DNA of 34,394 nucleotides from the IMG/VR virus record IMGVR_UViG_2531839446_000008; one strand, 5' to 3'. Origin of the DNA: a virus. Its lineage: Duplodnaviria; Heunggongvirae; Uroviricota; Caudoviricetes. Made by a program: the position numbers and the translations under genes. Of this stretch, positions 2,673 to 34,394 are shown one piece after another; within the stretch, counting starts at the first letter, position 1; every line of letters starts with the position of its first letter. The notes under the pieces are model-generated. The model was not told the origin of the DNA. It saw only the letters and a program-made list of their open reading frames with translations, and did no database searches.

Positions 2673-3137
2673 CTAGATTCGTCTCGCCTGCCAGAAATTT
2701 TTCTGCCAATAGACATTATCAAGTGAGGAACGCATCACTCCCTTGCTGGTAGAGGCGTGGATAAATTGGTTGTTGGTATCGTAAATACCTACATGCAAAC
2801 CATTTTGTCCGGAACCCGTTTTGAAAAAGACCAGGTCACCTGGCAGCAACTCGTCTTTATCAATTTGCGTGCCAATAGAGGCTTGTTGCTTGGTTTCACG
2901 GGGCAGCTGCAAATCGAAACGATCGCGCATCGTCACAACCACAAATCCCGAACAGTCCACACCGCGCCGCGTCATGCCACCATAACGATACGGCGTGCCA
3001 TGCCAGCTTTGTAGCTGGTCGTTCAAACCGGCAATAACGGTAATCGAATCAGAAAGTCTGGCATTTGGCGGCGGTGCTTTATGGTGGCTACACCCGGCCA
3101 GAAACAGTGCTGTGATCAAAATAAGGCAGAAACGCAT
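2673..3137 (-). CDS. nlpC: NlpC/P60-family lipoprotein (peptidoglycan endopeptidase)
   Basis: 154-aa ORF with a lipoprotein signal and lipobox (LFLAGC) and a Cys-containing NlpC/P60-like core (DCSGF); located upstream of btuD. Confidence 0.85.
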   Translation of the reverse strand: MRFCLILITALFLAGCSHHKAPPPNARLSDSITVIAGLNDQLQSWHGTPYRYGGMTRRGVDCSGFVVVTMRDRFDLQLPRETKQQASIGTQIDKDELLPGDLVFFKTGSGQNGLHVGIYDTNNQFIHASTSKGVMRSSLDNVYWQKNFWQARRI

Positions 3138-3214
3138 TCCGTACGGTTCCTCTGTTTTTTATTCTTGCATTAATTTAGCGTCGTAATTACCCGATTTTCA
3201 AGATACTAATGAAA

Positions 3215-3964
3215 TCAGATGGTCGAAATCAGCATTCTGTGACCTTCGATATCCAGACGGCGAAAATTCATCCCATAGGCCTGCGCCAGATTTGCCGGCG
3301 TGAGCACCTCTTCTCTGCGTCCACTGGCCAGCATTTTTCCACCTTTTAGCAACCACGCCCGATGCGCATGACGCAATGTGTGGTTGAGATCGTGACTGCT
3401 CATCACAATCGCCAGTCCTTGCTGACACAGCGCGCTCAGAATTTTGTCTAAGGCGCTTTGTTGCGCAACATCAAGACTGTTCATCGGCTCATCAAGAAGC
3501 AGCAATTGGCCTGCGGGATTGGCTTGTGGTGTGATTTGCAGCACCACCGCAGCAAGACGTACGCGTTGCCATTCACCGCCGGAAAGTTGATTGGTGCTAC
3601 GTCCGAGTTTGTCATCAAGAGCCAGCGCCCCTGCGACATCATTCAGTAGTTCGGTACGCGTTTTATCGTGCTGATGCAGTGTCAGGTAGTGCCAGACCGG
3701 CATTGCAAACGGCGGCGTCTGCTGTTGTGAAAGATAGGCGCGATGCAGCGCGAGCTTTGTTGCAGACCATGCTTCCAGTGGTTGCCCCGCGAACTGAATG
3801 CTTCCCTTACCGCTGGTCATTCCGGCCATTCGCGCCAGTAAGGTACTCTTACCCGCGCCATTCGGCCCCACCAGGTGCAGGATCTCCCCAGCCCGAACCT
3901 CGCCAGAAAGCGGCCCCAGGCGGGTGGATTCCGCAACATCCTGTAACTGCATCACAATAGACAT
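3215..3964 (-). CDS. btuD: Vitamin B12 ABC transporter ATP-binding protein BtuD
   Basis: 249-aa ORF with Walker A (GPNGAGKST), ABC signature (LSGGEWQR) and Walker B (LLLDEP); last gene of the btuCED arrangement. Confidence 0.9.
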
Positions 3965-4515
3965 TATTTTGCCAACGCCAGTTTAATGCTTTCCATCACA
4001 ATGGGATCTTCCGGCGTCATATCCGGGGAAAAACGCTGGATGACCTTTCCGTCCCTGCCAACTAAAAATTTCTCAAAATTCCATAAAATATCATCAGGGT
4101 ACAGCGGTGCACGACCTTTGCTGACCATACGGGCATAGAATCCGCTCTCTTCCGGCGCGACTGCAGTCGGCGCTGCGGCAATCAATTTTTGATACAGCGG
4201 ATGGCGTCCTTCGCCATTAACTTCAATCTTACTGAACATCGGGAACGTCACCCCCCATGTGGTGGTGCAGTAAGTTTTAATCTCTTCATCGCTACCCGGT
4301 TCTTGCTCCAGAAACTGGTTACACGGAAATCCCAGCACCACAAAACCACGATCAGCCCAGGCTTTCTGAATATTCTCCAACTGCTCATATTGCGGCGTTA
4401 AGCCACACTTTGAGGCGACATTGACAATCAACAGCACATTACCGGCGTACTTCTCCAGCGTGGTCACTTCACCGTCGATATCTTTCACTACGGTCGTCAG
4501 AATGGAATCTTGCAT
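3964..4515 (-). CDS. btuE: Glutathione peroxidase-family protein BtuE
   Basis: 183-aa ORF with a GPx-like N-terminus ([17 protein letters not shown]) between btuC and btuD; its stop overlaps the btuD start. Confidence 0.9.
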
Positions 4516-14288: not shown

Positions 14289-15248
14289 ATGAAAATTTGT
14301 ATCGACGACGGCTCCACCAACATCAAGCTGGCATGGACTGAGAACGGCGAACGCCGCAACGCCATCAGCCCGAACAGCTTCAAGTCGGAATGGTCTGCGC
14401 CGTTCGGTGGCACGCAGCCCGCGAACTACATGCTTGATGGCGTGCGCTATGGTTTTGATCCGGTCAGCGATCGCTTTGTCCAGACGACCGACACGCAATA
14501 CCAATACAGCGATGTGAATGTCATTGCCATTCATCACGCGCTGGTCAAATCAGGCATCACACCACAGGAGGTGGATGTGGTTGTCACCCTGCCACTGAGC
14601 GAGTATTTCGACACAAACGCACAGCCGGACATGGCCAACATCAACCGCAAAAAAGCGAACGTTATGCGCCCGGTGGAGTACCAGAACGGCGAAGCATTCA
14701 CTATCCGTAACGTGCGGGTTATGCCTGAATCCATTCCGGCTGGCTTTAAAGCACTGGCTGACATGAGTCCGTTTGAATCCCTGCTGATTGTGGATTTGGG
14801 CGGAACCACGCTGGATGTGGCAAAGGTTCAGGGGCAACTGGCAGGTATCAGCCAGGTGTTTTGCGATCCACACGTAGGCGTTTCTCTGATGGCCGATGCC
14901 GTGCTGTCGGTGATGGCCACTAACGGTATGCGCACCAGTCACCACATCGCCAATACCATTATCGAACATCGCTATGATGAAGCCTGGCTGCGCCAGCACA
15001 TCCACAATGACGCGCATTACGACAGCCTGATGGCGGTTATTCGTGAAAAGGAGGAAACACTGAAACAACGCGTGATCCGCGCGCTGGCGGTTTTTTCGGG
15101 TTACGGGCGGGTGATGGTTGTCGGTGGAGGGGCGGAGATTGTGGCACCCGCTATCCGCGAAGCCTGCGGAGTTAATGCGACTTTCATCGCGGACGGGGTG
15201 CCACAGTTTGCTCTGGTTAATGGGCTGTACGCAATGGACAAGGAGTAA
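14289..15248 (+). CDS. parM: Actin-like segregation ATPase ParM (StbA family)
   Basis: 319 aa; N-terminus MKICIDDGSTNIKLAW and internal motifs (VMPESIPAG, DLGGTTLD, VMVVGGGAE) closely parallel plasmid R1 ParM as I recall it. Confidence 0.85.
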   Translation: MKICIDDGSTNIKLAWTENGERRNAISPNSFKSEWSAPFGGTQPANYMLDGVRYGFDPVSDRFVQTTDTQYQYSDVNVIAIHHALVKSGITPQEVDVVVTLPLSEYFDTNAQPDMANINRKKANVMRPVEYQNGEAFTIRNVRVMPESIPAGFKALADMSPFESLLIVDLGGTTLDVAKVQGQLAGISQVFCDPHVGVSLMADAVLSVMATNGMRTSHHIANTIIEHRYDEAWLRQHIHNDAHYDSLMAVIREKEETLKQRVIRALAVFSGYGRVMVVGGGAEIVAPAIREACGVNATFIADGVPQFALVNGLYAMDKE

Positions 15249-15252
15249 ACCA

Positions 15253-15564
15253 ATGACGACTCCAACCAGACGGATAAGTTTCTATCTGAAGCCCACCGCC
15301 GTCAAGAACGAAGGAGAAGCATGCGCCTGGCTGGACAGCCTTACACCAGAAGCCCGCAAAAGCGGCCAACGCGTGGCTTTTCTGGCCGGGCTGGCACTTC
15401 TGAAAATGAATCCGGCAGAGGCTTACCGACTGGCTGCATGGGCTGATGATGAGGTGTTATCAGTGACACAAACCAAGACAGAACGCCCCGCGTCACAGCC
15501 AGTATCAACCGCACAGATAACCAGTCAGATGGCCGGAAATATCCGGGCGTTATTTCCTGAATAA
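15253..15564 (+). CDS. parR: ParR-like centromere-binding adaptor
   Basis: 103 aa from the ATG at 15253; the segment ISFYLKPTAV...AWLDSLTPEARKSGQRVAFLAGLALL parallels R1 ParR. The 15118 ORF is an out-of-context 5' extension overlapping parM. Confidence 0.7.
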   Translation: MTTPTRRISFYLKPTAVKNEGEACAWLDSLTPEARKSGQRVAFLAGLALLKMNPAEAYRLAAWADDEVLSVTQTKTERPASQPVSTAQITSQMAGNIRALFPE

Positions 15565-15848
15565 CATCAGGGCGTATTCGCCCTGCCACCAATCCCATAA
15601 CATAAAGAACGGGGTGCAAATCACTATACACCCCGTTCCAATACAAACCATCAGAAGATCTACACATCTTTCTCAAATGGCCAAGTAATCGAGCTGGTTC
15701 AGGAATAAGCATGCTGCCAACACAAGTGAAGGAGATAAAACTGTAGAACTGATCAATCGTTGGAAACAAGTATTGACAGTATGTTCGAGTAACCCAACTG
15801 GATAGATTTTATGCTGATTATCCATACAGTAAAAAAGTAAGGATACTC

Positions 15849-15877
15849 TTTGAATTACGCCAGCAAGAGTGGTAACA
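15849..15877 (+). promoter_or_regulatory. Putative sigma70 promoter for the AAA-S8 operon
   Basis: TTGAAT - 17 bp - TAACAT about 65 bp upstream of the ATG at 15943, in an AT-rich spacer. Confidence 0.3.
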
Positions 15878-15942
15878 TTAGTCAATGATTTTCATTAATG
15901 TAGTTACCAGCTTACACAAGCTGATGTTTTATTGGGGGTTTT

Positions 15943-17025
15943 ATGGTAAACGTGAGGGAGGATGAACTTTTCAAACTCATCGAGCAAGGCATCAAAGGCA
16001 ACGCAAATGCATTTACACTCCTATGCAGAAAGATGATTAACAACATCCGTAAAAATGATGAGGCTTTAGCTTCTAAGCTGGCTTCGTTAGTTGCTGAGGG
16101 AACAGTATTACGTGGGGCATCTAGTAAGGCTCCTATGCCTGTGGATGGAGACTCCAGACGAAACCTTTTGCAGGAAACATCTGTCAACGCAATTGTTGAA
16201 GAACCTGTATGGAATACGGATATCTCAAAGAAGCTGGAGTCAATTGTTAACGAAAGAGAGAATGCGGTTTCTTTGTTCAAAGCTGGTCTTGAACCTGTGA
16301 AGACGGTTTTACTTTCTGGCCCGCCAGGCGTAGGCAAAACAATGTCCGCACATTGGCTTGCTGCAAAGTTAAATTTACCTCTTTTAACATTGGATCTCTC
16401 ATCTGTAATGAGTTCTCTTTTGGGAAAAACAGGTAATAATATTAAATCCGTTATGGATTATGCCAAAGAGAAACCATGTGTCCTTTTGCTTGATGAATTT
16501 GATGCTGTTGCAAAAAGACGTGATGATGACAGGGACGTTGGAGAATTAAAACGTTTAGTTACTGTACTCCTACAGACCATAGATGAGTGGCCAGCGACCT
16601 CGCTTCTTGTTGCTGCGACTAATCACCCTGATATCTTAGATCCGGCTGTTTGGCGTCGATTTGAGCACATCCTTAAATTTAATATGCCATCAGTAGAACT
16701 GATAGATAGATATTTAGTCAATCATAATATTGAACCTGAACTATCTAAAAAACTTGCACCATTATTAGATGGCATGTCCTTTGCCATCATTAACCGTATT
16801 TTGAATTTCTCCAAAAAGAATGAGGTACTTAGAAATATTCCATTTGAAAGCTCATTAATAGAAGCCGTAATTACGGAGAGGGTTTCATTGGATGAGTTTA
16901 GCGATAATGATCTCAATATAATTAAATATCATTTTGACGGTTTTTCAAATAGGAAGATAGCTGAATTAGTTGGTGTTTCACATCCAACAATCGCGAATAA
17001 ATTACAAAAGTGGGGGATTAAATGA
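15943..17025 (+). CDS. Classic-clade AAA+ ATPase with C-terminal HTH
   Basis: Walker A (GPPGVGKT), Walker B (LLLDEFD), sensor/Arg-finger region (ATNHPDILDPAVWRRF); C-terminal HTH-like tail (NRKIAELVGVSHPTIANKLQKW). AT-rich. Confidence 0.8.
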   Translation: MVNVREDELFKLIEQGIKGNANAFTLLCRKMINNIRKNDEALASKLASLVAEGTVLRGASSKAPMPVDGDSRRNLLQETSVNAIVEEPVWNTDISKKLESIVNERENAVSLFKAGLEPVKTVLLSGPPGVGKTMSAHWLAAKLNLPLLTLDLSSVMSSLLGKTGNNIKSVMDYAKEKPCVLLLDEFDAVAKRRDDDRDVGELKRLVTVLLQTIDEWPATSLLVAATNHPDILDPAVWRRFEHILKFNMPSVELIDRYLVNHNIEPELSKKLAPLLDGMSFAIINRILNFSKKNEVLRNIPFESSLIEAVITERVSLDEFSDNDLNIIKYHFDGFSNRKIAELVGVSHPTIANKLQKWGIK

Positions 17026-19226
17026 TGGAAAGGAACTTACTTTTAGGTAACGGTCATGTTCTGACAAAAAAGGAACCTTTGCCTAAAGGAAGGGATGGTA
17101 AGCGCTATCCCTATACTCTTGAAGAAGTAAGGGAGCATTTAAACCCAGAGATTGATACTTTACTCTCACGCTTTCGCAGTTTGGATGATGCGGCTAAGCC
17201 AAGGGGGGAGAGTGTATTCAATTTAACTTTACACCCAGCGTTTTTGGGTAAAAGCTACTTTCCGGAAGGATTGCTTAGAGCGACAGGTTTACGGGATGTC
17301 GGCAGCCGTCAGGTAATCATTCGCCCACGGAAAGCGGCACGTCAGTGCGATCAGAATAAGGACTTAGTAACGGCGCAACTGTTTGTTAGCGGTGATGATG
17401 ATGCCGTTATAAGATTTAAGGAAATTTTAAATTCCCCTACAGCTCCGAAGGGCGTACAAAAGGATTTGATCGAAATTGAAAGTGTTAGCTTTTTTGAAGG
17501 AAAAGAGAGAGCACGCAATTTTGAGCATGCGAAAAGTGATTTGATAAAATTTGAAGTGGTTCTTCATGCTGGGGTTGAAGACGATGATATCGTTAAAGCC
17601 TATATTAGCTATGCGGCACAATATGATGTCTCTGTTGATTACAAAAGTAGAATCCAAGTTGGTGGGCTGACTTTCATCGTTGCACACGCGCGACCTGAAG
17701 ATATGAAAAAAACACTCGATTTTTCATTAATCCGCGTTGTGCGGCCGATGCCGTCTCTCAGGTGTACTCAGCCGAACATTGTCAGAAAGTTATCTAATAT
17801 AGTTACACCGGAGCTCCCTAATTCTAAAGCTGTTCTTGAATCCGAACGTATTGCCATTTTTGATGGTGGCTTGGGGACAGCTGACTTGAGTAATTGGGTT
17901 ACGGAATACGTGTATCCAGACACCAAAGAAACAAGCGGATTATTATTGCAGCACGGTAATGAAGTGACATCCACTTTCTTATTCGGACGTGTCGAGGAAA
18001 ATGCACCTTCTTTTAAAAGACCGTTTATGAATGTAGATCATTATAGAGTTCTTTCACCGACATCAGGTGACAATGGCAATTGGGATTTATTTGATGTCCT
18101 TAAGAAAATACAGTCCGTTCTTGATAGTGGTGACTATAAGTTCGCTAATCTAAGTATTGGTCCTCATCTTCCAATTGGTGATGATGAGGTTCATGTATGG
18201 ACTGCTGTTTTAGACCAAATCTGTGCTAAGCATGGGATATTACTTACTGTTGCTGTTGGGAATGATGGCAATGAGGACGGTGATGCAGCGAGAATACAAC
18301 CTCCTTCCGATATGGTAAACGCGCTAGCGATTGGTGCTGCTGATCGTAGCGGTGAAAAATGGGGGCGGGCACCATATAGCTGTATTGGGCCAGGCAGAAG
18401 CCCCGGATTCGTTAAACCTGATGGTGTTATTTTTGGTGGAAGCGACGACGAGCCTTTTTACACTTACAACCCTCTGCTTGGTTCTATAGTTGGAGTTCAA
18501 GGAACCAGTTATGCCTCTCCATTAGCATTGAGAACGGCCGCTGGAGTTGCGGCTCTATCAGGAACTCCATTGAACACCATTGCATTGAAAGCGTTGCTTG
18601 TTCATCATGCTGAAACATCAAGAAAATATTCGCGTGAACATATCGGTTGGGGACGGTTTAGTGAGGATCCTAACGTTTTAATCGATTGTCCAAATGATAC
18701 TGCTACAGTAATTTACTATGGTTCATTAGCAAAAAATAAATATTTAAGGGCACCGATCCCATTCCCTGATGTTCCCTTTGACGAAGCATTTGAGCTTACC
18801 GCTACTTTATGCATTCAAACCCCAGTAGATCCTGAACATTCAGTAAACTATACAAGGGCCGGTATGCAGGTAACTTTCCGCCCAAGATTCGGCCTTGACG
18901 ATACCGATACAGATGATTTCTTTGGTCAAAAAAGCCAGTATAAGACTGAAAGGGAGTGTAGGAGTGAAGGTCATAAGTGGGAAACTTGTTTGCACAGAAG
19001 CAAAAAGTTCAGTGCTGATACATTATTAAGCGATCCAGTTTTTGATATACGGTATCATGCCCGAGATTCTTCGCGCCATGTTAAGGGAGTTTCAGCCCCT
19101 GATATGCAATATGCGATGGTAATAAGCGTAAGGGTAAAAGACTTTGATTTATATAATGTTATTCGCCAGCGATATACAATTCTGAATCCTATTCAACTGC
19201 GCACACAAATTTCTCTCGACACGTAA
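17022..19226 (+). CDS. Large S8 (subtilisin-like) serine peptidase, no signal peptide
   Basis: 734 aa; Asp (IAIFDGG), His (QHGNEVT) and Ser (GTSYASP) motifs in subtilase order; about 270 aa N-terminal and about 200 aa C-terminal extra regions; start overlaps the ATPase stop (ATGA). Confidence 0.8.
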   Translation: MMERNLLLGNGHVLTKKEPLPKGRDGKRYPYTLEEVREHLNPEIDTLLSRFRSLDDAAKPRGESVFNLTLHPAFLGKSYFPEGLLRATGLRDVGSRQVIIRPRKAARQCDQNKDLVTAQLFVSGDDDAVIRFKEILNSPTAPKGVQKDLIEIESVSFFEGKERARNFEHAKSDLIKFEVVLHAGVEDDDIVKAYISYAAQYDVSVDYKSRIQVGGLTFIVAHARPEDMKKTLDFSLIRVVRPMPSLRCTQPNIVRKLSNIVTPELPNSKAVLESERIAIFDGGLGTADLSNWVTEYVYPDTKETSGLLLQHGNEVTSTFLFGRVEENAPSFKRPFMNVDHYRVLSPTSGDNGNWDLFDVLKKIQSVLDSGDYKFANLSIGPHLPIGDDEVHVWTAVLDQICAKHGILLTVAVGNDGNEDGDAARIQPPSDMVNALAIGAADRSGEKWGRAPYSCIGPGRSPGFVKPDGVIFGGSDDEPFYTYNPLLGSIVGVQGTSYASPLALRTAAGVAALSGTPLNTIALKALLVHHAETSRKYSREHIGWGRFSEDPNVLIDCPNDTATVIYYGSLAKNKYLRAPIPFPDVPFDEAFELTATLCIQTPVDPEHSVNYTRAGMQVTFRPRFGLDDTDTDDFFGQKSQYKTERECRSEGHKWETCLHRSKKFSADTLLSDPVFDIRYHARDSSRHVKGVSAPDMQYAMVISVRVKDFDLYNVIRQRYTILNPIQLRTQISLDT

Positions 19227-19233
19227 TTTTTAT

Positions 19234-19256
19234 GGCCGCGAAAGCGGCCTTTTTTC
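19234..19256 (+). terminator. Rho-independent terminator after the S8 peptidase gene
   Basis: ggccgc-gaaa-gcggcc hairpin followed by tttttt. Confidence 0.6.
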
Positions 19257-19679
19257 TGTAATTTTTTTATGAATTTACATGCACGATAGTGCACAAATTT
19301 GCACAATTTTTTTGAACGAATTTTTGCCCTTCTGGCCCGCGTGGCGGCTGGATCCGTCAGGGATCCGTGCGTGCACAAAAAAACGCGCTTTTTCTGCGCG
19401 CAGGTGACGGGGGAACAGCCCGCGTTTCAGGGGGTAAATAGCGTTCCCTTAACGATGTCGCAGCGACACGACAGAATGGCCGTATTTCTCACGCTGAGCG
19501 TGAAAAATACGTGAGGGATTCTGATTTGATGGGGTGAAAGGTAAGGCCGTCAAAATCGCACTGAGGCGGCGAGAACATGCAGTCAACGCGGTGGGATTGC
19601 GTAAGAGTCTGACCGTCGATGGTGGCGATAAACTGGAAGGCGTCGTGAAATTATCTGACTGATACAGGAGCTGGAGAGT

Positions 19680-28171: not shown

Positions 28172-28799
28172 GGCATTCATTCGCGTGGATGAAACTTTTG
28201 AGGCCATCCGCGACAGCCTGAATCAGCAGGCCATCAATAACATCGCCAGAAAGCTGGCACAGGATTTACGTCGCGCCCAGCAGGCACGTATCCGGTCACA
28301 GAAAGCGCCGGACGGGACCGCATGGGCACCACGCAGACGCCGCGTAACCCGGATACAGGAGCGTATTCGCTTTATCTGGAATAACGAAGCACGCACGCTG
28401 AAAAACTGGCATCACGACACGGGGAAATACGGGCGAACCATTACCGGGTGGGATGAGGATAAAAACAATATCCGCACGTTTTACCGGGATGACATCGACC
28501 GTTTTCTGGAAATACGCACCCGGCGCATCAACCAGGACAGCACAAAGCGCGTCCCCATGTTTGTAAAACTGCGCACCGCCCGCTACCTGAAAGCCCGTGC
28601 AGATGCTTCCGGTGTGACGGTGGGTTACAGCGGCGTGGCCGCACGTATTGCCCGCGTTCATCAGTTCGGTGAGCGCGATCAGGTTGCGCCGGGCATTTTC
28701 ACCGATTACCCGGTACGTGAGCTGCTGGGTATCAGCCAGGCAGATGAGCGCCTGATTTATAACACGGTGCTGGGCCGGATTGCGGAGGCTGTACGGTGA
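28164..28799 (+). CDS. S: Virion morphogenesis/tail completion protein, P2 gpS-like
   Basis: 211-aa ORF in the expected position between R and V. Confidence 0.65.
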   Translation: MDKAFIRVDETFEAIRDSLNQQAINNIARKLAQDLRRAQQARIRSQKAPDGTAWAPRRRRVTRIQERIRFIWNNEARTLKNWHHDTGKYGRTITGWDEDKNNIRTFYRDDIDRFLEIRTRRINQDSTKRVPMFVKLRTARYLKARADASGVTVGYSGVAARIARVHQFGERDQVAPGIFTDYPVRELLGISQADERLIYNTVLGRIAEAVR

Positions 28800-29377
28800 G
28801 CGCAGAACTCATGCGACTGCTGAGCAATATCATCCGCACCGGGATCATCTCTGAAGTTGATGAGAAGTCCTGGCGCGTGCGCGTTCGCAGCGGCGAACTG
28901 GAAACAGGCTGGTTGCGCTGGAACACCACGCGCGCGGGAGCCTTCAATGTGTGGCTGCCGCCATCACCAGGCGAACAGGTGGTAATTGCCTGCATTGGCG
29001 GCAACCCGGAAACCGCCATGATAATTGGCAGCCTGTGGAGTGATGCCAATCCGGCCCCCGGCAAAAGCCTGAAAGAAATCGTGGTCAGCGCGCCGGATGG
29101 CGCGGTGTTCCGCTACGACGCAGACGCTGGCGCACTGAGCGCCAGCGGCATGAAAACAGCCACCCTGCAGGCATCCGTCAGCGTGACACTGGATACACCC
29201 GTCGTGGAATGCACAGACCTTCTGAGAACGGCGACGCTTGACGTCACAAAAGGGGGAAAGATGAGCGGCAATATCACGCACAGCGGCGGCAATTTCACCT
29301 CAAACGGCATCACAGTGCATACGCATAAACACGGTGGCGTTAAAGGTGGCAGCGATTCGACAGGAGGCCCGCAGTGA
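28796..29377 (+). CDS. V: Baseplate spike/assembly protein, P2 gpV-like
   Basis: 193-aa ORF in the expected position. Confidence 0.75.
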   Translation: MSAELMRLLSNIIRTGIISEVDEKSWRVRVRSGELETGWLRWNTTRAGAFNVWLPPSPGEQVVIACIGGNPETAMIIGSLWSDANPAPGKSLKEIVVSAPDGAVFRYDADAGALSASGMKTATLQASVSVTLDTPVVECTDLLRTATLDVTKGGKMSGNITHSGGNFTSNGITVHTHKHGGVKGGSDSTGGPQ

Positions 29378-29724
29378 CAACCCGCTACACAGGAATGAAC
29401 CCGGACGGAACGGGAAACCTGAACGATACGGAGCACCTGAAACAGTCAGTCAGGGACATCCTGACCACCCCGCTGGCAAGCCGGGTTATGCGACGGGAAT
29501 ATGGCAGCCTTGTGCCTGATTTGATTGACGAACCCATGAATAACACAACTCGTCTGCAATGCATGAGTGCTGCCGTGATTGCGCTGACACGATGGGAACC
29601 CCGCATTGCCCTGGACGCCATCGACGTTGTCTGGAAGGCAGGAGGCCGCGCAGGGGTGACGCTGTCGGGCACTGTCATGCAGACCATGCAGAATGTTGAA
29701 TTAACCATCACGCTGAGAGAGTAA
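29374..29724 (+). CDS. W: Baseplate wedge protein, P2 gpW-like
   Basis: 116 aa; coupled to V. Confidence 0.75.
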   Translation: MTTRYTGMNPDGTGNLNDTEHLKQSVRDILTTPLASRVMRREYGSLVPDLIDEPMNNTTRLQCMSAAVIALTRWEPRIALDAIDVVWKAGGRAGVTLSGTVMQTMQNVELTITLRE

Positions 29725-29727
29725 ATC

Positions 29728-30624
29728 GTGCCTGCTGTTGACCTTTCCCAGTTACCGGAACCCGCCATCATCGCGGAGCCTGATTTTGAGGCAATTCTGG
29801 CTGACACAAAGGCCATGATAATTGCGTCCTATCCTGCCGAACAGCGTGAAGCCGTCTCCGCCGCGCTGAAGCTGGAATCGGAACCCCTGAACGTTATCGC
29901 TCAAACCATGTCTTTTCGTGAAATGCTGTTACGCCAGCGGGTCAATGAGGGTGCACGCGCCTGCATGCTAAGCCACAGCGCCGGGACAGACCTGGACAAC
30001 CTCGCGGGCAATATGAACACAAAGCGCCTGGTTATCACTCCGGCAACGGATACCACCGACGCAGTGATGGAAAGTGACACCTCGCTGAGACTACGGGCGC
30101 AACGGGCATATGACGGTCTGAGTGTTGCTGGCCCGTCAGGTGCATACGAGTATTTTGCACGCAGCGCCAGCGGTCTGGTACGCGATGCGCGGGCCATCAG
30201 CCCGTCTCCGGCCAACGTGACGGTTTCCATCCTGTCCACTGAGGGCGACGGCACAGCAACGGAGGCGTTGCTTAATACCGTTCGCGCCGTTCTGAATGCA
30301 GAGGATACCCGCCCGGTGGCCGACCGCCTGACCGTACAGAGTGCCAGAATCGTGACATGGCGGCTGAATGCAAAACTGTACTTTTACCCCGGCCCGGAAT
30401 CCGAACCTATTCTGGCCGCGGCGGAATCGTCGTTCAGGAAGTGGCTGTCTGAGCAGGGGCTTATCGGTCAGGACGTGGCGTTGTCAGCCATTGCTGCCGC
30501 ACTGCATGTGCACGGTGTGCAACGCGTGGAGATAATCGAACCCACACAAAATATGGCCATCAGCGACATACAGGCGGCGCGCTGTGAGTCATTCACCATC
30601 AGCGAAGGTGGGCGTAATGAGTAA
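29728..30624 (+). CDS. J: Baseplate protein, P2 gpJ-like
   Basis: 298 aa, GTG start. Confidence 0.75.
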   Translation: MPAVDLSQLPEPAIIAEPDFEAILADTKAMIIASYPAEQREAVSAALKLESEPLNVIAQTMSFREMLLRQRVNEGARACMLSHSAGTDLDNLAGNMNTKRLVITPATDTTDAVMESDTSLRLRAQRAYDGLSVAGPSGAYEYFARSASGLVRDARAISPSPANVTVSILSTEGDGTATEALLNTVRAVLNAEDTRPVADRLTVQSARIVTWRLNAKLYFYPGPESEPILAAAESSFRKWLSEQGLIGQDVALSAIAAALHVHGVQRVEIIEPTQNMAISDIQAARCESFTISEGGRNE

Positions 30625-31225
30625 TTCACTGTTACCGCCATCAGCCAGCAATTTCATGCATTGTGCCGAAGCTGTCGGAACGCGCATTACAGACATTCCG
30701 GTAAACCTCAACACGCTGTGGTCGCCGGACACCTGCCCGGTGCATCTGCTGCCTTATCTCGCCTGGGCATTTTCCGTTGACCGCTGGGATCGCAACTGGC
30801 CGGAAGAGACAAAGCGACAGGTGATTCGTGATGCATGGCTGATACACCGACACAAAGGGACCATCAGCGCACTGCGAAGAGCCGTGGAGCCTCTCGGCTA
30901 CCTGATTGAAGTAAAGGAGTGGTGGCAACTCAATGAGGAGCCTGGAACATTTCGCATTGTTGTCGGAGTACTTGATCAGGGCATCACCGATGAAATGTAT
31001 CAGGAACTTGAGCGCCTTATTGCGGATGCAAAACCAGTAAGTCGCCATCTGACAGGGCTGGCGATCAGTCTGAGTGTGAACGGAAAGATTTTCGTTGGTA
31101 CGGGATGCTATTACGGCGACGCCCTGACGGTTTATCCCTACACCCCGGAGTCCATTGTTGTCGAAGGGGATTATTTCCCGGCCCCGGCCATTCATTTAAT
31201 TGATAACCTGAGAGTAAACGCATGA
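30617..31225 (+). CDS. I: Baseplate protein, P2 gpI-like
   Basis: ATG at 30617 (MSNSLLPPSAS...); overlaps the J stop. Confidence 0.75.
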   Translation: MSNSLLPPSASNFMHCAEAVGTRITDIPVNLNTLWSPDTCPVHLLPYLAWAFSVDRWDRNWPEETKRQVIRDAWLIHRHKGTISALRRAVEPLGYLIEVKEWWQLNEEPGTFRIVVGVLDQGITDEMYQELERLIADAKPVSRHLTGLAISLSVNGKIFVGTGCYYGDALTVYPYTPESIVVEGDYFPAPAIHLIDNLRVNA

Positions 31226-32727
31226 CAGTGAAATACTACGCCATTCTGACTAATCAGGGCGCAGCACGACTGGCTAACGCGACGATGCTCGGCAGTAAGC
31301 TGAATCTGACGCAAATGGCCGTTGGTGATGCAAATGGTGTGTTACCAACACCAGACCCTGCACAAACAAAACTGATTAACCAGAAACGCATTGCACCGCT
31401 GAATCTTCTGAGTGTTGACCCTAACAATCAGAGCCAGATTATTGCGGAGCAAATCATCCCTGAAAACGAGGGAGGATTCTGGATCCGTGAGATTGGTCTT
31501 TATGATGATGAAGGTGTACTCATTGCGGTGGCAAACTGCCCGGAAACGTACAAACCGCAGTTGCAGGAAGGCAGTGGACGCACACAGACTATCCGCATGA
31601 TTCTGGTTGTCACGAACACCGAAGCCATCACGCTGAAAATCGACCCGTCTGTGGTTCTGGCAACCCGCAAATATGTGGATGATAAAATATCAGAGCACGA
31701 ACAATCACGACGTCACCCGGACGCCTCGCTGACCGTAAAAGGTTTTACTCAGTTAAGCAGTGCAATTAACAGTGAATCAGAAACACTGGCCGCAACACCG
31801 AAAGCGGTTAAGGCTGCATATGACCTGGCTAACGGGAAATATACCGCCCAGAACGCCACCACTACACAAAAAGGGATTGTTCAGCTCAGTAGCGCCACGA
31901 ACAGCACGTCTGAAACGCTGGCAGCGACACCAAAAGCTGTTAAGGCGGTAATGGATGAAACGAACAAGAAAGCACCATTAAACAGCCCGGCACTGACCGG
32001 AACGCCAACAACACCAACAGCGCCACAGGGGACTAATAGTACCCAGATCGCAAGCACGGCTTTCGTTATGGCCGCGATTGCCGCACTTGTAGATTCGTCA
32101 CCTGATGCACTGAACACGCTGAACGAACTGGCTGCGGCGCTGGGCAATGACCCGAATTTTGCGACCACCATGACTAACGCGCTTGCGGGTAAGCAACCGA
32201 AGGATGCCACCCTGACGGCGCTGGCGGAGCTTGCTACATCAGCAGATAAACTCCCATATTTTACAGGGGCAGATCGTGCCGCGTTAACCGCGTTGACAAG
32301 TGTTGGACGTGCCATTCTTGGTAAAACCAGCACTCAGGGAGTTCTTGATTACCTTGGTTTGGGAGAAGCGGCAAAACGGGATGTGGGAACAGGGGAAAAT
32401 CAGATACCGGATATGGCTTCTTTTGCCAGTGGTGATGGATGGATGAAATTACCCAACGGGAAAATCCTGCAATATGGTCGTGGTGCGATTACGCCGACAT
32501 TATCGACGCAAACAATGAGAATTACATTCAGCATCCCTTTTCCTAAAAAAGTGGACTGCGCCATGCTTACCCATTCTGGTGATGGTGGTGCACCTTTAGG
32601 TGCTGGACGGGGATTCGTGATGACCGCAGAAGGTCCAACATTAACCGGTTTTAATTCCGCTTACAGAACTGCATCAACCAGTTCCACAGTATCGATGAAT
32701 TACAGTTGGTGGGCTGTTGGTGAGTAA
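31222..32727 (+). CDS. H: Tail fibre protein, P2 gpH-like; C-terminal 120 aa lies inside the invertible segment
   Basis: 501 aa; the N-terminus MTVKYYAILTNQGAARLANA is the typical P2-family fibre N-terminus; the hix-like crossover site lies in-frame at 32342-32367. Confidence 0.8.
   Translation: MTVKYYAILTNQGAARLANATMLGSKLNLTQMAVGDANGVLPTPDPAQTKLINQKRIAPLNLLSVDPNNQSQIIAEQIIPENEGGFWIREIGLYDDEGVLIAVANCPETYKPQLQEGSGRTQTIRMILVVTNTEAITLKIDPSVVLATRKYVDDKISEHEQSRRHPDASLTVKGFTQLSSAINSESETLAATPKAVKAAYDLANGKYTAQNATTTQKGIVQLSSATNSTSETLAATPKAVKAVMDETNKKAPLNSPALTGTPTTPTAPQGTNSTQIASTAFVMAAIAALVDSSPDALNTLNELAAALGNDPNFATTMTNALAGKQPKDATLTALAELATSADKLPYFTGADRAALTALTSVGRAILGKTSTQGVLDYLGLGEAAKRDVGTGENQIPDMASFASGDGWMKLPNGKILQYGRGAITPTLSTQTMRITFSIPFPKKVDCAMLTHSGDGGAPLGAGRGFVMTAEGPTLTGFNSAYRTASTSSTVSMNYSWWAVGE
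31741..31955. repeat. Internal tandem duplication in the tail fibre gene
   Basis: Two consecutive units of about 35 aa each containing SETLAATPKAVKA (QLSSAINSESETLAATPKAVKAA... and QLSSATNSTSETLAATPKAVKAV...). Confidence 0.7.
32342..32367. other. Left recombination site of the invertible segment (hix/gix-like)
   Basis: ttcttgattaccttggtttgggagaa resembles hixL (TTCTTGAAAACCAAGGTTTTTGATAA); an inverted copy sits at 34243-34268. Confidence 0.6.
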
Positions 32728-32747
32728 TTTTATTAAGGGTGATTTAT

Positions 32748-33191
32748 ATGAACGAATATGTTTATAGCGCAAGGCATAATGCTTTTTTCCCTGTGGATAT
32801 GATTGATAAATATAAATCAGAGGGATGGGATTTATCAGATGCTAAAGAGGTGAATCAAAATATTATCAGTGAATTTATGGCTGAACCGCCACAAGGAAAA
32901 ATCCGTATTGCCGGAGGTGATGGGCTGCCTGCGTGGGCAGATATTCCTCCACCCACGCATGAAGAACTTATTGAAATTACTGAATCAGAAAGACAGCTAC
33001 TAATTAACCAGGCCAACGAATACATGAACAGTAAGCAATGGCCCGGCAAAGCCGCTATTGGTCGTCTGAAAGGTGATGAACTGGCGCAATATAATTTGTG
33101 GCTGGATTATCTGGACGCACTGGAGCTGATCGATACTTCCGGTGCACCAGATATTGAATGGCCTACGCCTCCGGCAGTTCAGGCCAGATGA
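32748..33191 (+). CDS. Tail fibre assembly chaperone (Tfa), current orientation
   Basis: ATG at 32748 (MNEYVYSARHNAFFP...); follows the H variable region. Confidence 0.7.
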   Translation: MNEYVYSARHNAFFPVDMIDKYKSEGWDLSDAKEVNQNIISEFMAEPPQGKIRIAGGDGLPAWADIPPPTHEELIEITESERQLLINQANEYMNSKQWPGKAAIGRLKGDELAQYNLWLDYLDALELIDTSGAPDIEWPTPPAVQAR

Positions 33192-33765
33192 CATCCGGCG
33201 CGGTGCTGGTATCTGTTGCCGTCACCGCGTCAATGTAATCCAGCACAGCGTTAAGTCTGGTTGTTTCTGCCTGCGTCAGTTTACGTCCGGCCTGCAATTT
33301 CAGTTGAATCAGACTGATGGAAGCCATTGCTGCATCAATCAGTGACTGGCGCTGTGCTTCTGCCGCGTCTACTGCGGCGCTATGCTGTGCCTCGGTATCC
33401 GTCACCCATTTCTTACCATCCCATTCATCGTATGGCGTTAACGGGGCGATAGTGGTTGTATTTTCGGGATAGTCGCCCGGTGCTGTGATTTCTTTGGCAT
33501 CTCCCGTTTCGGTGTTATAGACAATTTCACCGCGATGGTCCGGCACATATTCCCATGAGTTTAAATCTATCGAACGGCAGATAGCATAACCCGCCTTATG
33601 TGTGCCAGGGGCATCTAAACAGGAATATGCAGGGATACCGACGCCAACAGCAAGATATTCATTTGAAGTGGAAATATATTCCCGGGTTTCACTATCATAG
33701 TTATACACTGTAATATTCCCTGCTTTGGTGGCGATAATCTCGCTATTTAATATGGCGTTATCCAT
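33163..33765 (-). CDS. Alternative tail fibre assembly chaperone (Tfa'), inverted orientation
   Basis: 200-aa ORF; its C-terminus converges on and overlaps the plus-strand Tfa C-terminus, and both end with a similar ...IDTS/ATDTSxAPDI(E/V)WP motif. Confidence 0.65.
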   Translation of the reverse strand: MDNAILNSEIIATKAGNITVYNYDSETREYISTSNEYLAVGVGIPAYSCLDAPGTHKAGYAICRSIDLNSWEYVPDHRGEIVYNTETGDAKEITAPGDYPENTTTIAPLTPYDEWDGKKWVTDTEAQHSAAVDAAEAQRQSLIDAAMASISLIQLKLQAGRKLTQAETTRLNAVLDYIDAVTATDTSTAPDVIWPELPEA

Positions 33766-34298
33766 TATGCAGCCCTCACAATATAGTTAAATGCAATATT
33801 CCTTGGTCGAACCCTAAAACCAGCCCCTGCGCCTGCTCCAGTTGGTGGCAATTCGATAGAGGGGTATGCTGTTGCAGGGGAATATAAACCTTCACGGGAA
33901 TCATAATCAGTCGTCATATAGTTAGACGTATTATCAGAAACAGTTTCTGTCGGTCTGGTAACCAGACGATAAGAGCCAGTGGTTGGTGACCTGACCAGAC
34001 CAAAACTTTCAACCAGAGTAGCTTTTTGAAAGCTTAATAATCCCCGACCACTGTCAGCTCCGCGCCCATCATCCCAGCCACGAATAAACTCACCGCGTAA
34101 ATCAGGCAGTTTATTTGTCGGATAAGCCTTTGCCAGTTTAGGATATTCAACGGCAGAAAATGCCGCACCGTTGCATTTCAGCCAGCCTGTTGGCGGAGTG
34201 GCGGAAGGCCACGGAACAGGCACACCCGCGGGTAATGCCGAACCTTCTCCCAAACCAACGTTTAAGAAAATGCAGAGATTACGGCTAACTGGCATCAT
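33765..34298 (-). CDS. Alternative tail fibre C-terminal variable segment, silent in this orientation
   Basis: ORF reading inward from the right crossover site; it has no independent start context, and after inversion it would fuse to the H constant region at the shared GLGE junction. Confidence 0.6.
   Translation of the reverse strand: MMPVSRNLCIFLNVGLGEGSALPAGVPVPWPSATPPTGWLKCNGAAFSAVEYPKLAKAYPTNKLPDLRGEFIRGWDDGRGADSGRGLLSFQKATLVESFGLVRSPTTGSYRLVTRPTETVSDNTSNYMTTDYDSREGLYSPATAYPSIELPPTGAGAGAGFRVRPRNIAFNYIVRAA
34243..34268. other. Right recombination site of the invertible segment
   Basis: Plus strand cttctcccaaaccaacgtttaagaa is the reverse complement of ttcttaaacgttggtttgggagaag, sharing a ttggtttgggagaag core with the left site. 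Confidence 0.6.
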
Positions 34299-34325
34299 CC
34301 CCGGTTTTTATTCAGGGGATCCATC

Positions 34326-34394
34326 ATGCTTATTGGCTATGTCCGCGTATCAACAAATGACCAGAATACAGAATTGCAGCGTAACGCGCTGGAG
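34326..34394 (+). CDS. Serine DNA invertase (Pin/Gin/Hin family), N-terminal fragment
   Basis: MLIGYVRVSTNDQNTELQRNALE is the conserved resolvase/invertase N-terminus containing the catalytic Ser; truncated by the window edge. Confidence 0.8.
   Translation, partial: MLIGYVRVSTNDQNTELQRNALE

Follow-up and report, generated by a model that had tools for sequence, protein, structure and literature searches.

Evidence for a Pin/Gin/Cin-class tail-fibre-tip inversion switch in a P2-like prophage

The right end of the 34,394-nucleotide stretch analysed here (hereafter, the window) very probably holds an inversion switch of the Pin/Gin/Cin class, by which a P2-like prophage of Peduovirus type would exchange its tail-fibre tip. 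The chromosome is of E. coli type, and btuC and ihfA flank the integrated prophage. A preliminary description made from the letters alone had read the region as an invertible tail-fibre switch, and the present analysis supports that reading. The device is an ordinary one, and the system is already known. Its parts within the window are the following:

31222-32727, plus strand: fibre gene H as currently oriented ("ON" state), 501 aa (ORF and Pfam)
32342-32367, plus strand: left crossover site, 26 bp, TTCTTGATTACC-TT-GGTTTGGGAGAA, centre TT at 32354-32355
32356-34256, no strand: invertible segment, 1901 bp between the central dinucleotides
32748-33191, plus strand: Tfa, the ON cassette's 147-aa tail-fibre assembly chaperone (Caudo_TAP PF02413, 9.7e-31)
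33163-33765, minus strand: Tfa', the silent cassette's 200-aa, TfaE-like tail-fibre assembly chaperone (Caudo_TAP PF02413, 2.2e-32)
33765-34244, minus strand: silent fibre C-terminus (Collar domain PF07484, 4.4e-15)
34245-34270, plus strand: right crossover site, 26 bp, TTCTCCCAAACC-AA-CGTTTAAGAAAA, centre AA at 34257-34258, read as TT on the minus strand
34326-34394, plus strand: 5' part of a Pin/Gin-type serine DNA invertase gene, first 23 codons (69 nt), with Arg7 and Ser9

Crossover sites, fibre cassettes and P2-type context

The left crossover site (TTCTTGATTACCTTGGTTTGGGAGAA) occurs once in the 34-kb window, where 0 occurrences are expected by chance, and lies in frame within H, at codons 374-382 (VLDYLGLGE); the preliminary description had placed it in H at exactly these coordinates. 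The right site reads TTCTCCCAAACCAACGTTTAAGAAAA on the plus strand. An inverted partner had been proposed at 34243-34268, and this partner exists in the inverted orientation, but its true register lies 2 bp rightward, at 34245-34270, and it is not a full 26-bp copy, as only 19 of the 26 positions are common to both sites. Fourteen contiguous bases common to the two sites comprise the TT core and the inner half-site GGTTTGGGAGAA; the central dinucleotides (TT at the left, AA at the right) are compatible, and the inner half-sites are identical. As an ungapped inverted repeat, the pair measures 18 nt at 94% (32351-32368 and 34244-34261).

We scanned the window with TTNTCNNAAACCNNGGTTTNNGANAA, which we take to be the 26-bp dyad consensus of hix/gix/pix-type sites. 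At three or fewer mismatches, this consensus yielded two matches in 34 kb, in inverted orientation, with 0.00 expected. In phage Mu, the same consensus falls precisely on the G-segment boundaries as annotated, and in e14 it finds two sites, the first within stfP/ycfK and the second immediately upstream of pinE, in agreement with the earlier assignment of the sites as hix-like. The outer half of the left site carries 3 mismatches to the consensus, and the identical left site is found in three relatives (L001, L004 and L005), the last two of which form a pair that differs by inversion (see below). A third crossover site, as in the shufflon-like multi-inversion arrangement of one EPEC prophage, was absent from the window at three or fewer mismatches.

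Between the sites lie two opposed sets of fibre C-terminus plus Tfa chaperone, as first described, which both the ORFs and the Pfam matches bear out. The present H carries the domains Phage_tail_fib (PF12571, 1.5e-62), Phage_fiber_2 (PF03406, 3.9e-42) and Gp53-like_C (PF21882, 1.6e-11), the last of these on the variable tip. Its layout consists of constant residues 1-378, a GLGE stretch (379-382) from the shared inner half-site, and the tip itself at residues 383-501, a variable part of 119 aa that fits the 120-aa C-terminal variant given earlier as the expressed one. A protein identical to this H is encoded on many public contigs, and a homologue of the ON-cassette Tfa is annotated as a CDS in L001. 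The two tfa genes overlap tail to tail by 29 bp. On the minus strand, the frame of the silent C-terminus is open from the crossover site through to its stop, and the cassette contains neither an internal stop nor a frameshift. When the segment was inverted in silico, H stayed in frame and its length became 541 aa in place of 501 aa, with the silent cassette supplying 159 variable residues. The ORF at 33765-34298 ("phage tail protein") represents the alternative, silent 3' end of H and is not a gene in its own right. The silent tip is mosaic at ~33810-34060, where it diverges from its nearest relatives and is 98.8% identical to other E. coli prophage tips, the stretch 33810-34060 having been replaced relative to prophages that are otherwise 97% identical.

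The tail module at 28796-32727 follows the P2 order V-W-J-I-H and then the fibre chaperone, with the families Phage_base_V/spike/Apex (GpV spike), GPW_gp25, Baseplate_J, Tail_P2_I and Phage_tail_fib. The P2 families GpR, S, GpU and GpE are found on contigs encoding the identical H, and the nearest phage record is Peduovirus pro483 (KR073661). Family order and nearest phage thus both agree with the P2-type tail module proposed at the outset. The further statement that the switch was grafted onto this module is a fair description, but the arrangement is common and widespread in E. coli P2-like prophages and is not peculiar to this one. Separately, the tail-gene block downstream of the invertase in relatives lies on the strand opposite to that in pro483. 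We considered a second invertase-mediated inversion as the source of this opposite-strand operon and rejected it: no flanking inverted repeats or hix-like sites were found and D is divergent from FI, and we therefore treat the block as a fixed arrangement of the lineage.

Both orientations occur in prophages of the same type

The segment is found naturally in both orientations, in the same prophage type and with identical crossover sites. In E. coli FRIK2533 (L004) and RM19259 (L005), the flanks are 100% identical over 5314 and 3297 bp, while the 1917-bp segment between them is 99.9% identical yet inverted, with the breakpoints inside the 18-bp repeat. This is what a conservative site-specific inversion gives. 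Both crossover sites of this pair are identical to those of the window. The RM19259 prophage occupies the same chromosomal locus and is collinear with the window, and the alignment of the window to FRIK2533 breaks at 32368 and 34244. That only one orientation might ever be observed had been named beforehand, together with an inactivated invertase gene, as an outcome that would speak against a switch; the FRIK2533 and RM19259 pair provides both.

The invertase, the proposed mechanism and its alternatives

The invertase gene starts at 34326, as the preliminary description had it. After 23 codons it runs off the end of draft contig ADUS01000062.1, with which the window is coextensive. The distance from the centre of the right site to its ATG is 68 bp, compared with 67 bp in both Mu and e14. 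The N-terminal sequence within the window, MLIGYVRVSTNDQNTELQRNALE, includes Ser9, which is the nucleophile in Gin (PMC3575834). These 23 codons are 100% identical to a 199-aa recombinase of relatives, which upholds the Pin/Gin-type assignment, and in the relatives the gene continues across the position of the window end (...CTGGAG followed by TGCGCAGGATGTGAA...). A near-identical copy in L001 shows the Pfam domains Resolvase (PF00239, 4.1e-51) and HTH_7 (PF02796, 1.4e-12). The 199-aa invertase of the relatives is 83% identical to e14 Pin and matches the Gin structures 4M6F/3UJ3 at E ~1e-91 (1.5e-91) as well as the Hin DNA-binding domain at 1.6e-11. An NCBIfam scan of five proteins gave no specific family, the invertase having only sub-threshold matches to other serine recombinases.

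By analogy with its family, we propose that dimers of the small serine recombinase encoded to the right of the segment would bind at 32342-32367 and 34245-34270, and that host Fis, bound to an enhancer within the 5' portion of the recombinase's own gene, would promote their assembly into a synaptic tetramer. Ser9 would then cleave both sites at the central TT/AA, one pair of subunits would rotate by 180 degrees, and religation would yield the 1.9-kb inversion. If the segment has no promoter of its own, as we assume by analogy with Mu, then, with the left site lying in frame in H, only the H-facing cassette would be expressed, from the late operon. The captured state would thereby produce the 501-aa H with a gp53-like tip, followed by the 147-aa chaperone, and the flipped state a 541-aa H with a Collar-domain tip, followed by the 200-aa TfaE-like chaperone. 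The predicted outcome is mixed phage progeny with two receptor specificities; that the two orientations differ in host or receptor specificity is likewise suggested by Mu and related systems (PMC3575834, PMC4272514).

The Hin enhancer is Fis dependent and lies ~100 bp from the nearer crossover site (PMC3798978), and the title of a reference in PMC3798978 places the Gin enhancer within the 5' part of the invertase gene. An enhancer would accordingly be expected here ~100-170 bp from the right site (~34360-34430), mostly past the window end. A loose 15-bp Fis-motif scan of the 5' regions of the relatives' invertase genes gave one conserved candidate (GAAGATAAAATCAGC, at +168) and no convincing pair of Fis sites at the expected spacing, and we therefore claim no enhancer. 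Synonymous sites of the invertase show somewhat higher conservation over the first ~50 codons than over the rest, a pattern weakly suggestive of an enhancer. The weak sigma-70-like matches listed by a simple scan, which bear on the assumed absence of a promoter within the segment, occur at about chance frequency, and upstream of the invertase the scan found no sigma-70-like promoter.

The same end of the contig raises an alternative, namely that the locus is a frozen relic which retains the architecture of a switch but no longer flips, the invertase being truncated or inactivated past the contig end and the fibre fixed in the gp53-like-tip state. The gene is indeed visible for 23 codons only, this strain's single assembly (GCA_000188875.2) holds one orientation, and truncated invertases beside such segments are documented, for example in EC958 Phi4 (PMC4134206). 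We nevertheless regard a relic as improbable, given that the two intact crossover sites have the same sequence as in prophages that occur in both orientations, that the silent cassette has remained open, and that the visible 151 bp of the window are 100% identical to FRIK2533, in which the 199-aa recombinase gene is intact. Moreover, pinE genes of the Pin family are annotated in many E. coli genomes, and Pin-family invertases use heterologous sites in trans, as in EC958 Phi4, where the segment flips although its invertase gene is truncated (PMC4134206). That there is no site-specific switch at all, and that cassettes and repeat arose from tail-fibre mosaicism (homologous or illegitimate recombination between prophages) with the orientations as separate ancestral rearrangements, is extremely unlikely: the tips are clearly mosaic, with 33810-34060 of other origin than the rest of the segment, and junction types vary widely among genomes, yet the FRIK2533 and RM19259 breakpoints fall exactly in the 18-bp repeat between 100% identical flanks and around a 99.9% identical segment, the sites fit a 26-bp consensus with 0.00 expected, a serine invertase gene stands 68 bp off as in Mu and e14, and switching inside clonal cultures has been demonstrated for such prophage segments (PMC4272514, PMC4134206).

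For the tail-fibre inversion switch that we favour, the importance beyond correct annotation is small: the contig ends within a gene for a Pin-family invertase, the locus is phase-variable, and no new question is opened. Assembly is affected because contigs break here and orientations differ between otherwise identical genomes, and pseudogene calls are affected because PGAP splits H in some relatives; a phase-variable locus also bears on host-range prediction for P2-like prophages and on tailocin engineering. A more speculative idea, which we consider doubtful, is that the silent cassette serves as a recombination "landing pad", in which the unexpressed orientation would gather new receptor-binding tips without cost, for inversion to test later; if so, the switch would serve evolvability and would not be just a toggle between two states. 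Possibly, the invertase also acts in trans on the sites of other prophages in the same cell. To our knowledge, both ideas stay within what has already been discussed for Mu, P1 and p15B-type systems.

Comparison with known systems

The P segment of e14 with its Pin invertase (E. coli K-12; stfP/ycfK-tfaP / tfaE-stfE / pinE) has the same layout as the present locus, with a constant fibre, opposed tip-plus-Tfa cassettes and an invertase, and its tfa genes too overlap by 29 bp. A single one of the 26 positions separates the right site here from the e14 site beside pinE, the inner half-sites GGTTTGGGAGAA are identical, and blastn gives 90% nucleotide identity over window positions 33066-33800, covering tfaE, with stfE-side alignments at 85-89%. 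The two differ in that e14 is a defective lambdoid remnant, whereas the carrier here is a P2-like myovirus prophage whose fibre is of the P2 H type in its constant part (PF12571 + PF03406). Further differences lie in the outer half of the left site (4 positions), in the invertase (199 aa in relatives vs 184 aa for Pin), and in the ON cassette (gp53-like tip and 147-aa Tfa), which has no e14 counterpart except ~125 bp of tfa.

The locus also resembles the Mu G segment with its Gin invertase (S/U vs S'/U'): in both, the 26-bp sites have an identical central dinucleotide in the two copies, the left one falls within the fibre gene, fibre tip and chaperone form two opposed cassettes, and the invertase gene follows directly on the right with the same spacing. 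Mu's segment is longer, however (~3 kb vs 1.9 kb), its core is TC/GA where the present one is TT/AA, and half-sites, fibre sequences and phage type are all unlike. Hin/hix of Salmonella flagellar phase variation resembles the present system in recombinase subclass, 26-bp sites and a Fis-dependent enhancer (PMC3798978), the last of these expected here by analogy, but it flips a promoter, exchanges no protein C-termini and has no association with tail fibres.

Further parallels are found among other E. coli prophages. Segment switching has been seen by deep or long-read sequencing in the P2-like prophages of EPEC E2348/69 (PMC4272514) and in prophages Phi1, Phi2 and Phi4 of EC958 (PMC4134206). 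As in the present locus, the 5' region of the EC958 loci, which carries Phage_fibre_2 repeats, is stable, the 3' region encoding a Collar tip is invertible, a chaperone-like gene lies downstream and the sites are 26 bp long (PMC4134206). The carrier class is the same in the EPEC prophages and in pro483, while the EC958 prophages are not typed as P2-like in PMC4134206. Some EPEC and EC958 loci have three sites or longer repeats, compared with two sites here. Both pro483 and EC4115 have these two cassettes, at 91-92% identity, and their sites are almost the same as those here. The differences from the EPEC, EC958 and pro483 loci are at the sequence level only, with the tips being mosaic.

Two fibre cassettes and their crossover sites

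Two sets of fibre C-terminus and Tfa chaperone genes lie in opposite orientation between an inverted pair of 26-bp sites, as the preliminary description had proposed; both the open reading frames (ORFs) and their domains were recovered. The evidence supports the interpretation of this arrangement as an invertible tail-fibre switch.

Features of the tail-fibre segment and its borders
31222-32727: tail-fibre gene H, 501 aa, with P2-type N-terminal fibre domain (PF12571), Phage_fiber_2 repeats and Gp53-like C-terminal domain
32342-32367, + strand: left crossover site, TTCTTGATTACCTTGGTTTGGGAGAA, 26-mer
32748-33191: Caudo_TAP chaperone of the ON cassette (the one now facing H), 147 aa, downstream of H
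33163-33765, - strand: Caudo_TAP chaperone of the silent cassette, 200 aa
Right site to 33765, - strand: silent fibre tip, open frame with phage Collar domain
34245-34270: right crossover site, + strand TTCTCCCAAACCAACGTTTAAGAAAA, reverse complement TTTTCTTAAACGTTGGTTTGGGAGAA
34326-34394 (window end), + strand: 5' fragment of the invertase ORF, 69 nt, beginning MLIGYVRVSTNDQNTELQRNALE

The exact left 26-mer occurs at 32342, where it had been placed, and only once in the window. Its inverted partner exists as well, but the position first assigned to it, 34243-34268, is 2 bp too far left. The two sites agree at 19 of 26 positions and have in common the central TT and the entire inner half-site GGTTTGGGAGAA, i.e., 14 contiguous bases, and a repeat finder returned an 18-nt inverted repeat (94%) at 32351-32368 / 34244-34261. 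With a dyad-symmetric 26-bp consensus for hix/gix-type sites, TTNTCNNAAACCNNGGTTTNNGANAA, matches with up to three mismatches were found in the 34-kb window at the two crossover sites only (0.00 expected from shuffles). As controls, the same consensus was run on phage Mu (right end), where it yielded exactly two sites, centred at the annotated boundaries of the G segment, and on e14, the defective E. coli K-12 prophage, where it yielded exactly two, within stfP/ycfK and immediately upstream of pinE. Neither the repeat search nor the consensus scan (≤3 mismatches) found a third crossover site in the window, so the switch has two states.

The left site is in frame in H, at codons 374-382 (VLDYLGLGE), with the exchange dinucleotide within codon 378. 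Because residues 379-382 are encoded by the common half-site, the variable tip starts at residue 383 and extends to 501, so that the C-terminal variant described as 120 aa and now expressed measures 119 aa. Upon in silico flipping of 32356-34256, H stayed open at 541 aa and ended in the Collar-type tip. The two tfa genes share 29 bp at their convergent 3' ends (33163-33191), a length identical in e14 (tfaP/tfaE) and in every relative examined. The silent Collar-type tip is mosaic in its distal part (33810-34060, - strand), which does not align to relatives that are otherwise 97% identical and is 98.8% identical to tips of other E. coli prophages, e.g., those of O157:H7 493/89 and strain 10671. 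In RefSeq/PGAP annotation, H of E. coli EC4115 and RM19259 is broken up into pseudogene fragments, with a "gp53-like domain-containing protein" listed separately (L003, EC4115, 3023-4222; L005, RM19259, 5023-6528), and their silent 3' cassettes are named independent "phage tail protein" genes; the invertible layout may have misled the annotation here.

Invertase gene and inversion in related prophages

The Pin/Gin-type invertase ORF begins at 34326 as anticipated, and its 5' fragment is identical to the serine recombinase gene of relatives. The window is the entire draft contig ADUS01000062.1 (34,394 bp; assembly GCA_000188875.2) and stops 69 nt into this gene, which was therefore cut by the assembly and not by the choice of window; a pin-family gene present in several copies might have broken the short-read assembly at this point. 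The last 151 bp are 100% identical to O157:H7 FRIK2533, where the invertase gene is intact (199 aa), and a near-identical copy in another relative (L001) has Resolvase and HTH_7 domains. The window's fragment includes Ser9, which is the nucleophile in Gin (PMC3575834). The invertase start codon lies 68 bp from the centre of the right site, compared to 67 bp in Mu and e14. Between the right site and this codon is a hairpin that resembles a terminator, with a T-run after it (34287-34306, + strand). It is kept in CEC08123 and pro483 and could prevent transcription of the H operon from running on into the invertase gene, or could be due to chance.

The segment might be a frozen relic, with an invertase that is dead beyond the contig end in the window's strain. 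This is unlikely to matter, since both crossover sites and the silent cassette are intact and invertases act in trans; indeed, flipping persists in an EC958 prophage whose own invertase is truncated, presumably through action in trans (PMC4134206).

The window assembly holds the segment in a single orientation. FRIK2533, however, is collinear with the flipped and not the native window, the native alignment being broken at 32368 and 34244. FRIK2533 and RM19259 carry the same prophage, with identical flanks (100% over 5314 bp and 3297 bp), neighbouring genes with identical protein accessions, and a 1917-bp segment that is 99.9% identical and reversed, where the alignments overlap in the 18-bp repeat only. 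The crossover sites of both strains are each 26/26 identical to those of the window. This difference is the signature of site-specific inversion, of the conservative type, with exactly these sites as its end points, and it contradicts an origin of the arrangement purely by mosaic recombination. Among complete E. coli genomes, 92 contain the constant part of H and the Collar-type tip as one contiguous piece, and 8 have the H junction seen in the window.

Prophage context

The left 5.7 kb of the window is E. coli-type chromosome (selO, ydiV, nlpC, btuDEC). The P2-like prophage then runs from integrase, replication genes, a ParM-like gene, portal, terminase and capsid to lysis genes and GpR/S, followed by V, W, J, I and H, in line with the P2-type tail module named at the outset. 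Its nearest phage record is Peduovirus pro483. A prophage of RM19259, likewise located between btuC and ihfA, is collinear with it and 94-98% identical block by block. The main region where the window departs from collinearity with the RM19259 prophage (about 15564-19280) holds a two-gene, low-GC (0.39-0.43) cargo at 15943-19226 (+ strand), between the ParM-like gene (14289-15248) and the portal gene: the IetA/IetS anti-phage defence pair (PADLOC; AAA ATPase IetA, E=3.6e-89; S8 protease IetS, E=6.6e-41).

In the window's nearest prophage lineage, the invertase is immediately followed by the tail operon FI-FII-E-E'-T-U, which is encoded on the opposite strand and points towards the H operon and away from D/ogr (L001 6759-9201; FRIK2533, L004, 7907-10495; L008 33616-39191; beyond the window's right end), whereas pro483 and EC4115 retain the gene order that is canonical for P2. 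A search of the relatives for inverted repeats or hix-like sites on either side of this operon found none, and its placement thus looks like a fixed lineage rearrangement.

Mechanism and comparison with known systems

Judging from the family, invertase dimers would bind both sites, Fis on an enhancer in the 5' part of the invertase gene would assemble the invertasome, and Ser9 would cut at the central dinucleotide, after which the subunits would rotate by 180 degrees and the ends be religated (PMC3575834; PMC3798978). The central cores of the two sites match (TT / AA), which would make religation possible in the inverted configuration only. The enhancer would be expected across the end of the contig; in relatives, a scan with a loose Fis motif and a profile of synonymous sites are only suggestive of it. 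On the model of Mu, the cassettes are taken to lack promoters of their own, so that the one facing H would be expressed; a promoter scan gave only weak sigma-70-like matches, at about chance rate.

Inversions of this kind have been seen directly: phase-variable tail-fibre inversions were found by Goldberg et al. in e14 and two P2-like EPEC prophages (PMC4272514), and Forde et al. reported about 50:50 orientation mixtures in PacBio reads for one prophage of EC958 (PMC4134206). An EC958 prophage has the same architecture as the window, i.e., a 5' region with Phage_fibre_2 that stays constant, a 3' region with a Collar domain that can invert, and crossover sites of 26 bp (PMC4134206). The window's ON cassette (gp53-like tip and 147-aa Tfa) is absent from e14 and present in pro483 and O157:H7 EC4115 at 91-92% identity. 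The e14 alignment that covers tfaE is 90% identical to the window, and those on the stfE side are 85-89% identical. Alignment to Gin/Cin/Pin/Hin systems, as proposed in the preliminary description, gave 83% identity over 183 aa between the FRIK2533 invertase and e14 Pin, with the Gin structures 4M6F and 3UJ3 as best solved relatives (E about 1e-91); the right site and the e14 site adjoining pinE differ at a single nucleotide, and the inner half-sites are identical. The window's system hence belongs to the Pin branch of this family, as an inversion system that has been described before and occurs commonly in E. coli.
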